Shown: one piece after another, positions 53,795 through 55,547 of the stretch
Layout of the letters: each line of letters starts with the position of its first letter
How positions within the stretch are numbered: the stretch's first letter is position 1
Position numbers and translations under genes: made by a program
Notes under the pieces: model-generated
Database searches by the model: none
What the model was told of the DNA's origin: nothing
What the model saw: only the letters and a program-made list of their open reading frames with translations
NCBI RefSeq assembly: GCF_003334355.1
Contig: NZ_QOWP01000003.1
Strand: one strand, 5' to 3'
Origin: Escherichia coli
GTDB lineage: Bacteria > Pseudomonadota > Gammaproteobacteria > Enterobacterales > Enterobacteriaceae
Length of the DNA stretch: 64,000 nucleotides

Positions 53795-54553
53795 ATGAGC
53801 CTGACCCTCACGCTCACCGGCACCGGCGGCGCACAGGGCGTTCCGGCATGGGGCTGCGAGTGTGCGGCCTGCGCCAGAGCGCGGCGCTCGCCGCAGTATC
53901 GCCGCCAACCGTGCAGCGGCGTAGTGAAGTTTAACGACGCAATCACCCTGATCGACGCCGGGCTGCACGATCTCGCCGATCGCTGGTCGCCCGGATCGTT
54001 CCAGCAGTTTTTGCTGACGCATTATCATATGGATCACGTCCAGGGGCTGTTTCCGCTGCGCTGGGGCGTTGGCGATCCGATCCCGGTTTACGGCCCGCCG
54101 GATGAACAGGGCTGCGACGATCTGTTTAAACATCCGGGCCTGCTTGATTTCAGCCACACGGTGGAACCGTTTGTGGTGTTTGATTTGCAGGGGTTACAGG
54201 TCACGCCCCTGCCGCTCAACCACTCAAAACTGACCTTCGGTTATCTGCTGGAAACGGCACACAGCCGGGTGGCGTGGCTGTCTGACACCGCAGGCTTGCC
54301 GGAAAAAACGCTGAAATTTTTACGCAATAATCAGCCGCAGGTAATGGTGATGGATTGCAGTCACCCGCCGCGCGCGGATGCACCGCGTAATCACTGTGAT
54401 TTAAATACCGTGCTTGCGCTGAATCAGGTTATCCGCTCGCCACGGGTGATTCTGACCCATATCAGCCACCAGTTTGATGCGTGGCTGATGGAAAACGCAC
54501 TACCGTCAGGGTTTGAGGTGGGGTTTGATGGGATGGAGATTGGGGTGGCGTGA
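53795..54553 (+). CDS. phnP: Phosphoribosyl 1,2-cyclic phosphate phosphodiesterase PhnP (metallo-beta-lactamase fold)
   Basis: ORF track 252 aa; HxHxDH motif ([11 protein letters not shown]); last gene of the phn cluster. Confidence 0.93.
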
Positions 54554-54569
54554 TGAGAGGGAATGTGCG

Positions 54570-54680
54570 CGCTGGCCCCCTCACCCTAACCCTCTCCCCA
54601 GAGGGGCGAGGGGACCGATTGTGCTCGATATTGAATATTGCGCTCGTTTTCTCCCTCTCCCCATTGGGGTGAGGGGCGAT
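54570..54680. repeat. Two copies of a GC-rich palindromic intergenic repeat (box C-like; name uncertain)
   Basis: CCCCTCACCCTAACCCTCTCCCCAGAGGGGCGAGGGGACC (about 54575-54616) and CTCCCTCTCCCCATTGGGGTGAGGGGCG (about 54651-54679), each CCCTCTCCCC-N3-GGGGnGAGGGG; related inverted copy at 27565-27600. Confidence 0.5.
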
Positions 54681-54699
54681 GCCTGCTCCATACCCAACC

Positions 54700-55029
54700 T
54701 CATCGCCCATACTCATCTTCCATTCTCCGCTCTTCATCCTCCAGTTGCCGACGCTCCTGATCAAGCTGGCGCTGGCGATCGTCCAGCTGCCTGCGGCGAT
54801 CTTCAAACTGGCGGCGGCGGTCGTCATATTGTCTGCGCCGATCGTCGCTCACTTCACGCTGCCAGCCGTCGTCGCGCGAATCTTCATAGTCTCGCCCACG
54901 GTCAGGGTTATAAGCGTCATTAATCGCCTGCTGAATATTGCCAATGGTGTCGTCGATAATATCGGCCTGGGCCGGAACGGTGGACAGCGTGAGCAGGGTG
55001 AATAAAAGAAATAGCGGAAAGCGTTTCAT
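54700..55029 (-). CDS. yjdP: YjdP, secreted low-complexity Arg/Asp/Glu-rich repeat protein
   Basis: ORF track 109 aa; signal peptide MKRFPLFLLFTLLTLSTVPAQA followed by charged repeats (DDRRRQYDDRRRQFEDRRRQLDDRQRQLDQERRQLEDEERR); recognised as YjdP. Confidence 0.85.
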   Translation of the reverse strand: MKRFPLFLLFTLLTLSTVPAQADIIDDTIGNIQQAINDAYNPDRGRDYEDSRDDGWQREVSDDRRRQYDDRRRQFEDRRRQLDDRQRQLDQERRQLEDEERRMEDEYGR

Positions 55030-55097
55030 TAGCCAACCTCAAAAAGAAACTCTATCCACATTAATCATTACTCATCCATGCAAGTAGTGGATGAATC

Positions 55098-55547
55098 TCA
55101 ATTTCTCCGCTGCTCTATTGCCGTAATCGCCTCCACGCGTTGTTGATGACGACCGCCTTCGTACTGTGCGCCCAGCCACGCATCCACAATCATTTTTGCC
55201 AGTTCGAGGCCAACCACTCGTGAACCAAAAGCCAGCACGTTGGTGTCGTTATGCTGCCGCGAAAGTTGCGCGGAATAAGGTTCGCTACAGACGACCGCGC
55301 GAATTCCGGCAAACTTGTTCGCCGCTATCGAAATACCGACGCCAGTACCACAAATCAAAATCCCGCCATCAACCTCTCCGCCAGCAACAGCCAGTGCGAC
55401 TTGACTGGCGTAATGTGGATAATCAGTACGCTCTGACGACCAGGTTCCTTTATCAATCACTTCAACGCCACGCTCAACTAAATGTGCCACTATTTCATGT
55501 TTTAAAATGAAACCGACATGATCACAGCCAAATGCAATCTTTTTCAT
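55098..55547 (-). CDS. rpiB: Ribose-5-phosphate isomerase B / allose-6-phosphate isomerase
   Basis: ORF track 149 aa (MKKIAFGCDHVGF...); RpiB/LacAB family; divergent from rpiR. Confidence 0.95.
   Translation of the reverse strand: MKKIAFGCDHVGFILKHEIVAHLVERGVEVIDKGTWSSERTDYPHYASQVALAVAGGEVDGGILICGTGVGISIAANKFAGIRAVVCSEPYSAQLSRQHNDTNVLAFGSRVVGLELAKMIVDAWLGAQYEGGRHQQRVEAITAIEQRRN

Follow-up and report, generated by a model that had tools for sequence, protein, structure and literature searches.

Does a gene with visibly repetitive DNA change its repeat number from strain to strain, and which of its repeats is the one that changes? The question is raised by yjdP, a gene on the minus strand at 54700–55029 of a 64,000-nucleotide (nt) stretch of Escherichia coli DNA (contig NZ_QOWP01000003.1 of assembly GCF_003334355.1), which as a whole is referred to as the window. 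A first inspection of the letters alone, called here the sequence-only reading, had described yjdP as coding for a secreted, highly charged repeat protein whose DNA repeats may expand or contract in frame. Our analysis leads to an explanation in several parts, which taken as a whole is considered likely. YjdP would be a conserved exported protein with six heptads under constraint, it would be made from a promoter with an RcsB-like box, and slippage would act separately, in the signal peptide of a lineage that includes sequence type 131 (ST131).

The open reading frame (ORF) comprises 109 codons followed by a stop codon at 54700–54702, and is given alike by the ORF list, by the match to NCBIfam family NF041443 and by the RefSeq annotation. 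It is read from the minus strand into a protein of 109 amino acids (aa), MKRFPLFLLFTLLTLSTVPAQA|DIIDDTIGNIQQAINDAYNPDRGRDYEDSRDDGWQREVSDDRRRQYDDRRRQFEDRRRQLDDRQRQLDQERRQLEDEERRMEDEYGR, the mature part of which starts with DIIDD. The protein scores 147.9 bits against NF041443, "DDRRRQL repeat protein YjdP", for which the cut-off is 90, and its residues 1–103 are aligned with profile positions 1–101 of 101. The DNA around 54700–55029 is that of K-12, being 100% identical to K-12 records, where RefSeq carries the label "yjdP: DDRRRQL repeat protein YjdP", and Pfam PF28054 (YjdP) is listed for identical and related proteins in precomputed annotations. The protein is the type member, from K-12, of the family that bears its name, so that both the gene and its repetitive character were already on record. 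The name yjdP given by the sequence-only reading is confirmed by the profile score and by the annotation of identical DNA; no function of YjdP has been published in the searchable literature. A local scan against Pfam-A, with a library that lacks PF28054 and is probably an older release, gave no match at E≤0.001 and only insignificant coiled-coil-like matches. A PDB profile search returned weak matches to coiled-coil proteins only (E≥0.025), and an Rfam search of 54400–55200 returned no match.

What kind of protein is encoded can be read from its layout. Codons 1–22 (MKRFPLFLLFTLLTLSTVPAQA; 54964–55029, minus strand) form a putative signal peptide with a predicted signal peptidase I site after AQA. 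The features of a Sec-type signal peptide are all present: an n-region with K2 and R3, a 15-residue hydrophobic core FPLFLLFTLLTLSTV (such cores usually have about 7–15 residues), and A20-Q-A22 at −3/−1 followed by D23. In the family alignment (A4) A22 is invariant and D23 is at least 90% conserved, and the A-x-A|D pattern is kept in family members. The lipobox L-[AS]-[GA]-C is absent and YjdP has no cysteine at all, so it is not a lipoprotein; the Tat motif S/T-R-R-x-F-L-K is likewise absent, the n-region M-K-R-F-P-L-F having no R-R pair. The signal peptide named by the sequence-only reading is accordingly of the textbook cleavable Sec type, as read from the sequence, and is conserved across the family. 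YjdP is predicted to be exported to the periplasm.

The mature protein has 87 residues, 55% of them charged, with a net charge of −8, and falls into three segments. The first, D23–Y40 (DIIDDTIGNIQQAINDAY; 54910–54963, minus strand), is an amphipathic helix of 18 residues that are uncharged or acidic (net −4); it is conserved across genera and is modelled as helical, with low confidence, by AlphaFold2. The second, N41–V60 (54850–54909, minus strand), is an acidic linker of 20 residues (net −3) that is predicted to be disordered; AlphaFold2 gives a coil at 41–53 with a predicted local distance difference test score (pLDDT) of about 52–66. Linker length and sequence differ between genera, the family alignment is gappy here, and nothing in the family varies more than the length of the linker. 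A side observation concerns Raoultella, where the linker has a short repeat of its own, DDDDRYDDGRY in one genome (L063) versus DDDDRYDDDRYDDGRY in another (L064), with a difference of a 5-aa unit between the two. Alternating acidic and basic residues are confined to the third segment, residues 61–109, and the claim that the protein is almost entirely of this kind does not hold, since residues 23–60 are an amphipathic helix and an acidic linker.

The third segment, S61–R109 (54703–54849, minus strand), is a charged heptad helix, as judged from the AlphaFold2 model, a heptad table of 77 species and charge-pair statistics. Its six heptads, DDRRRQY, DDRRRQF, EDRRRQL, DDRQRQL, DQERRQL and EDEERRM, follow the general form [DE][DE]R[RQ]RQ[LFYM], with Y68, F75, L82, L89, L96 and M103 as the hydrophobic 'a' residues. 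Among the 49 residues 33 are charged (17 acidic and 16 basic) and 7 are Gln. AlphaFold2, with a 15-sequence alignment, gives a single unbroken helix over 54–108 with pLDDT of 89–96 over 61–100. At i+3 and again at i+4 there are 18 pairs of opposite charge for a single pair of like charge; no shuffle out of 2000 came to so large a margin. The helix is probably stabilised by these dense i/i+3 and i/i+4 salt bridges between Asp or Glu and Arg, in the way of ER/K single alpha-helices (SAHs).

The register of the heptads is strictly kept. The conserved LD..Q.QLD motif served to anchor the proteins of 77 species, and all of them (77/77) have exactly six hydrophobic 'a' positions, occupied along the helix by Y in 74, L or F in 72, L in 77, L in 75, L in 76, and L or M in 76. 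At 'd', R is found in 74, 74 and 71 species in the first three heptads, followed by E or D in 70, E or D in 76 and D or E in 75, which is a conserved reversal of charge from R,R,R to E/D,E/D,D/E. Positions b and c are acidic, f is Arg, and g is Gln except in the last heptad, where it is Arg. Because these residues are position-specific in 77 species, the heptads are not interchangeable and the length of the helix is conserved. The pattern of opposite charges at i/i+4 is as dense as in an SAH (18 versus 1). An SAH is monomeric in solution and has no hydrophobic seam, whereas YjdP has a hydrophobic residue at every 'a' in 77 species; a canonical coiled coil has hydrophobic residues at both 'a' and 'd', and in YjdP 'd' is charged. 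The Leu stripe together with the 'd' reversal, basic and then acidic, would suit a helix that pairs with itself in antiparallel orientation or docks onto a partner carrying charge.

The species comparison was made by scanning one genome per GTDB species, which yielded 103 relatives, of which 80 were kept. The 80 loci are nearly all from Enterobacteriaceae (Escherichia, Citrobacter, Enterobacter, Klebsiella oxytoca, Raoultella, Kosakonia, Leclercia, Buttiauxella, Kluyvera, Atlantibacter, Cedecea and others), with one record titled Chryseobacterium sp. and with none from Salmonella. Among 1.84 billion cluster representatives, searched exhaustively with phmmer, only 53 proteins were found, many of which are fragments. 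Across about 80 species the signal peptide, the A-x-A|D site and the position-specific heptads are conserved at the protein level in the presence of synonymous divergence. Judged from these comparisons, yjdP is a genuine, conserved gene restricted to Enterobacteriaceae, coding for a small protein with predicted export.

Does the DNA of the heptads expand and contract? A 21-nt-period imperfect tandem repeat at 54774–54846 is the nucleotide imprint of heptads 1–4. Tandem Repeats Finder reports it with a period of 21 nt, 3.5 copies, 75% matches and a score of 76, and a separate repeat search (family D1) gives 5 copies at a spacing of 21 nt that are 63–75% identical. The two tracts quoted in the sequence-only reading are present, GTCGTCGCG on the plus strand at 54868–54876 and CGCCGCCGC on the coding strand at about 54811–54822; they lie on opposite strands, and both are fragments of the 21-nt periodicity. 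Charged repeats with matching DNA repeats are therefore real, as six heptads with a 21-nt period. Identical residues in different heptads share their codon in 22 of 58 pairs, which is about chance by the gene's own codon usage, so that the DNA is a poor substrate for slippage. With its synonymous sites scrambled, the 21-nt repeat is, from what the codons tell, the diverged imprint of an old protein repeat and not a recent duplication.

Within the species, the K-12 heptad region as a query found 5,406 complete E. coli genome records, and in an evenly spread sample of 60 rows the length of the region is unchanged in 59. The sole exception, strain 2024CK-00535, has a 72-nt in-frame deletion that removes 24 aa and leaves a protein of 85 aa, with a 6-nt microhomology, GGCAGC, at the flanks of the deletion. 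The commonest shorter allele is of 102 aa (P0039), with one heptad fewer; it is matched at ≥99% identity by only 16 complete-genome records, but occurs widely among draft assemblies, the index listing it in 2,561 blocks of the assembly collection. Other in-frame alleles comprise independent 7-aa deletions at different heptads (P0024, P0025/P0062, P0026, P0029–P0039), deletions of 2 aa and 12 aa, and an addition of 14 aa in E. albertii (P0038). Among the rare in-frame indels are ones of −21, −72 and +42 nt. Repeat number across E. coli is thus nearly constant (59/60 rows), not wholly invariant, given these rare alleles. Of the proposal that the heptad DNA expands or contracts, the part that stands is that in-frame indels exist; they are rare, the heptads number six in 77 species, and the codons are scrambled. 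These comparisons indicate that the number of heptads is clearly held at six by purifying selection, with only rare microhomology-mediated deletions or duplications in frame.

The repeat that does vary lies elsewhere in the gene. Alignment of length variants places the extra length of the longer YjdP variants in the signal peptide and not in the charged region. In the window the hydrophobic core contains three imperfect 9-nt units, TTATTCACC CTGCTCACG CTGTCCACC, coding for LFT LLT LST at 54979–55005 (minus strand), as seen in the alignments. In a lineage including ST131 the units form a perfect array (CTGTTCACG)n, that is (Leu-Phe-Thr)n, which is in frame with n=2–13. The alleles found are n=2 (P0172), n=4 (L003 and ST131 locus L092), n=6 (L001), n=7 (L002), n=8 (L091 and ST131 strain 2017_APHA, L095) and n=13 (strain AREA_487; L094, NZ_CP123343.1, 4–423), the last with a full ORF of 420 nt and 139 aa. 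Strains labelled O25b:H4-ST131 carry n=4 (L092, strain 4993), n=7 (2019_APHA) and n=8 (2017_APHA), and hence the array changes within a young clone. The same RpiB accession is common to all sequenced loci with n≥4, and so is the same PhnP accession except for L094, in which phnP lies outside the fetched stretch. By these comparisons, two C-to-T changes would have made the 9-nt units perfect in the lineage including ST131, and replication slippage would now vary the copies from 2 to 13.

The frequency of the alleles was estimated with allele-specific queries of 200–220 nt, counting records at ≥99% identity: 304 records for n=6, 135 for n=7, 70 for n=8 and at most 131 for n=4. In evenly spread samples expanded alleles occur in 6/60 and 7/60, or in about 10% of complete genomes. 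An exact look-up of perfect alleles from n=3 to n=10 in a collection of 15 billion proteins found none, though n=4, 6, 7 and 8 exist in RefSeq; since alleles known in RefSeq are missing there, that collection is unfit for counting LFT alleles. The repeat also leaves traces in annotation. Draft assemblies often give a "partial" YjdP that starts inside the repeat. For the 13-unit allele of AREA_487, the coding sequence annotated by RefSeq's Prokaryotic Genome Annotation Pipeline (PGAP) is 333 nt long and begins inside the repeat, and an ATG with a normal Shine-Dalgarno sequence gives the 420-nt ORF; the annotated start looks like a mis-annotation caused by the expanded repeat.

The consequence for the signal peptide is a longer core, of 15 residues at n=3, 24 at n=6, 30 at n=8 and 45 at n=13. 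On the Hessa hydrophobicity scale the most favourable stretch of 19 residues drops from about +4.9 kcal/mol in K-12 to about −3.7 at n≥6, a value like that of a transmembrane helix. Compared with contingency loci, which have perfect tandem repeats differing in copy number among close isolates, (CTGTTCACG)n shows this property and the charged repeats do not. On/off switching by copy number is not found, all alleles being in frame, and because the unit is 9 nt the array cannot act as a frameshift switch.

How yjdP may be expressed is indicated by the DNA in front of it. In window coordinates phnP (53795–54553, plus strand) lies upstream of yjdP, and rpiB (55098–55547, minus strand) precedes yjdP on the same strand. 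An element resembling an RcsB box, TGAGATTCATCCAC (family consensus TGAGATTCCTCCGC), is located at 55087–55100 (minus strand); it shares bases with the stop codon of rpiB and begins 71 nt before the yjdP ATG. A candidate −10 hexamer TAATGT, inferred at 55058–55063 (minus strand), follows 23 nt downstream of the box and reads TACCGT or TAACGT in other genera; a Shine-Dalgarno GAGG is read from the sequence at 55037–55040 (minus strand), 7 nt before the ATG. The 160–200 nt before the start were compared in K-12 and in 79 species loci, one of the 80 having no usable start. A footprint AtTTGAGAtTCCTCCGCTAC is kept in all 80 upstream regions (77 distinct sequences), in which the flanks are unrelated and the upstream genes differ. 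From the start of the box to the ATG the distance is 70–75 nt in 79 of these regions and 89 nt in the remaining one, and in 70 of the 80 the box is followed by TAnnnT at exactly 23 nt. A scan of the rpiB–yjdP interval for the sigma-70 consensus found no promoter. Two terminator-like matches inside yjdP, on the antisense strand, were discarded as artefacts of the GC-rich repeats.

The published consensus of the RcsB homodimer box is TN(G/A)GAN4TC(T/C)NA (PMC7913699). The yjdP box departs from it by one mismatch, at the last base, and the core TN(G/A)GA...TC(T/C) is kept in 80/80 regions. In cells treated with a LolCDE inhibitor yjdP rises 9.5–10.6-fold and is listed among wca, rcsA, yjbE/G, osmC and cpxP (PMC5105897). 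With imipenem yjdP counts rise from 478 to 672 (1.4-fold) and those of the upstream rpiB fall from 96 to 61 (PMC6286996 Table S2); the two are thus regulated independently, which argues for a promoter belonging to yjdP itself. Conservation, geometry and co-induction together make RcsB a candidate for binding the box, which would be centred near −42.5 relative to the inferred start.

The box persists when the neighbouring DNA is exchanged. O157:H7 has island OI167 in place of the als-rpiB region (PMC10128022), and there too the box is at −71, where it overlaps the stop codon of a histidine-kinase gene. K-12 and O157 arrangements alike keep the box over the stop codon of whichever gene lies upstream. 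The als-rpiB/OI167 boundary falls inside the first yjdP codons (window about 55016–55100; L004 930–1160): homology between K-12 and enterohaemorrhagic E. coli ends near 55016, and the N-terminus MKRFPLFL becomes MKRHSTLF. Citrobacter-type N-termini resemble the O157 form, and therefore the arrangement with the kinase gene may be ancestral.

Taken together, the parts suggest the following course. YjdP would be transcribed from its own activator-dependent promoter with the conserved RcsB-like box, such that envelope damage causes the protein to be made. A Sec/signal peptidase I signal peptide of 22 residues would export a mature protein of 87 residues, which in the periplasm may serve as an extended helix of high charge, for binding or as a spacer. 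The helix may bind itself, antiparallel according to the R-R-R / E-E-E 'd' positions, or a charged partner in the envelope. Several points weigh against this course. The degenerate RcsB pattern with one mismatch has 26 matches in the window where 58 are expected by chance, and for this reason a consensus match counted in a single genome was rejected as evidence. The LolCDE inhibitor also activates Cpx and sigma-S (PMC5105897), and a chromatin immunoprecipitation peak of CsiR with 3.5-fold repression has been reported for yjdP (PMC5217608), so that other regulators also act on it. Self-association is unsupported by modelling: an AlphaFold2 tandem dimer (mature-linker-mature, 20-row alignment) had a predicted template modelling score (pTM) of 0.44, an N-terminal helix with pLDDT <50 and no Foldseek match, and its helices have lower confidence than those of the monomer, so that the model speaks neither for nor against self-association. 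The analogy with SAHs is imperfect, since Asp favours helix formation less than Glu does. No experiment on the export, structure or function of YjdP and no data on yjdP in a delta-rcsB strain were found in the searchable literature, and the protein is absent from one large thermal-proteome data set.

Alternatively, the upstream element may be bound by a regulator other than RcsB, of the NarL/FixJ type or an RcsB heterodimer, or yjdP may be induced via Cpx or sigma-S. The departing last base, conservation that runs past the box (ATTTGAGATTCCTCCGCTAC), the reported CsiR binding and the induction of Cpx and sigma-S genes by the LolCDE inhibitor would fit such a regulator; yet activation by RcsB typically shows the GA-N4-TC spacing and a site that borders on the −35 region, the core is kept in 80/80 upstream regions, and yjdP stands among classic Rcs genes in the induction list. 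A different regulator is for these reasons possible but somewhat unlikely, and control by RcsB is preferred. A reading of another order holds that the ORF is spurious, or a cytoplasmic low-complexity product, and not a real exported protein. Failure to detect YjdP in the proteomic data set and the lack of a significant domain in the local Pfam-A scan would agree with it, but it is effectively refuted by protein-level conservation with synonymous divergence in about 80 species, signal peptide and heptads included, by a good Shine-Dalgarno sequence, by a curated NCBIfam equivalog and by the transcript induction measured with the LolCDE inhibitor.

Two further alternatives ascribe a function to length variation. 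If the charged-repeat DNA were a hypermutable tract, in-frame changes would give functionally relevant length variants of YjdP among strains. Several independent alleles are indeed in frame (deletions of 7, 2, 12 and 24 aa, and +14 aa in E. albertii), and the 102-aa allele is found in 2,561 blocks of the assembly collection; nevertheless, 59 of 60 rows have the same length, only 16 records carry that allele at ≥99%, six heptads are fixed in 77 species, the DNA repeats are 63–75% identical with codon sharing at chance, and the one deletion junction inspected is microhomology-mediated and not a change of unit number. Hypermutability of this tract is very unlikely, and constraint on six heptads is the reading retained. 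The signal-peptide array may instead be a rheostat, in which a core of 24–45 residues alters targeting, blocks or slows cleavage, or anchors YjdP in the inner membrane, and in ST131-type strains slippage would adjust how much YjdP there is or where it is located. Copy number does differ among ST131-labelled strains (n=4, 7 and 8) and ranges from 2 to 13 overall, the best 19-residue segment at n≥6 resembles a transmembrane helix on the Hessa scale, and the reading frame is always kept. A 9-nt unit keeps the frame automatically, however, so the in-frame status is not evidence of selection; the spectrum of about 304, 135 and 70 records for n=6, 7 and 8 looks like stepwise drift; and the c-region and AQA site are intact and cleavage may simply continue. 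We regard a rheostat, with the tuning in ST131-type strains that goes with it, as unlikely. More unlikely still is the extended version, in which YjdP is a conserved Rcs-induced periplasmic protein of one charged helix and the array has become hypermutable in the pandemic ST131 lineage. Slippage would there turn a cleavable signal peptide with a 15-residue core into a segment of 24–45 residues, of transmembrane length or more, and the variable number of tandem repeats would be a heritable, rapidly reversible dial between soluble periplasmic, membrane-anchored and non-exported YjdP.

Several observations were made beside these subjects. The phnP–yjdP spacer (54554–54699, 146 nt) contains two GC-rich hairpin repeats, CCCTCACCCTAACCCTCTCCCCAGAGGGGCGAGGGG and CTCCCTCTCCCCATTGGGGTGAGGGG, which resemble 'boxC' repeats. 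The hairpins are absent in the ST131-type lineage, in which the spacer is only 27 nt (L001). The spot in the spacer is listed as a conserved hairpin/G-quadruplex element in a survey (PMC5100583). Many genomes match the yjdP query only from query position 68–101 onward. A hydrophobic ORF of 108 aa runs antisense through nearly all of yjdP (54679–55005, plus strand) and ends exactly at the TTA codon of YjdP Leu9; because antisense stops need a sense TTA, CTA or TCA, it looks like a by-product of codon content. Two tiny contigs of 427–484 nt labelled Pseudomonas aeruginosa hold a partial YjdP of the E. coli type (P0182, P0183), probably by contamination. Four of roughly 5,400 yjdP matches are plasmid-classed records, and a few genomes have two copies. 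The automatic JGI names for YjdP, 'RNase H-like nuclease RuvC/YqgF' and 'Skp family chaperone', have no support in any profile search made.

Since it has at least 7 alleles and varies even inside ST131, the signal-peptide repeat could be of use as a marker for typing on a fine scale. The LFT alleles are also a natural series in which the length of the h-region can be set against Sec and signal recognition particle targeting and signal-peptidase cleavage. If the hypothesis on the upstream footprint is right, an orphan y-gene would join the Rcs envelope-stress regulon throughout Enterobacteriaceae. The heptad register, with its Leu stripe, Arg ladder and 'd' charge reversal, offers a concrete structural hypothesis for an SAH-like helix in the bacterial periplasm.

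How, finally, does YjdP compare with known systems? To NF041443/PF28054 it belongs end to end and without difference, and the family is named but has no assigned function. The other likenesses are partial. For the varying array, the CTCTT repeats of Neisseria opa are likewise tandem repeats in a signal-peptide core that differ between close relatives; their 5-nt unit switches on and off by frameshift, of which the yjdP unit is incapable. The Leu-Ala-Leu indel in the signal peptide of human APOB is an in-frame unit of 9 nt as in yjdP, but has two alleles only, compared with at least 7 in yjdP (n=2, 3, 4, 6, 7, 8, 13).

For the protein itself, three comparisons can be made. Spy, CpxP and ZraP are small, all-helical, periplasmic and induced by envelope stress, as YjdP appears to be (its periplasmic location is predicted), and cpxP rises in the same experiment; the LTxxQ motif is missing from YjdP, neither the Pfam scan nor the PDB search gave a sequence match, and YjdP is predicted as an extended single helix in place of a cradle-shaped hairpin dimer. 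Braun lipoprotein Lpp is, like YjdP, a small enterobacterial envelope protein with a heptad-repeat helix of about 50–56 residues after the signal peptide, but YjdP lacks the lipobox Cys, the C-terminal Lys for peptidoglycan linkage and any sequence similarity; a trimeric a/d core as in Lpp is not expected because the 'd' positions of YjdP are charged. With the ER/K SAH of myosin VI/X and caldesmon YjdP shares a long predicted unbroken helix and dense opposite-charge pairs at i/i+3 and i/i+4. It differs in having Asp, Arg and Gln instead of Glu and Lys, a bacterial and predicted periplasmic setting, an invariant hydrophobic residue at every seventh position and the conserved reversal of charge at 'd'. 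By analogy, and in spite of a hydrophobic seam that an SAH does not have, YjdP would work most like an ER/K single alpha-helix.

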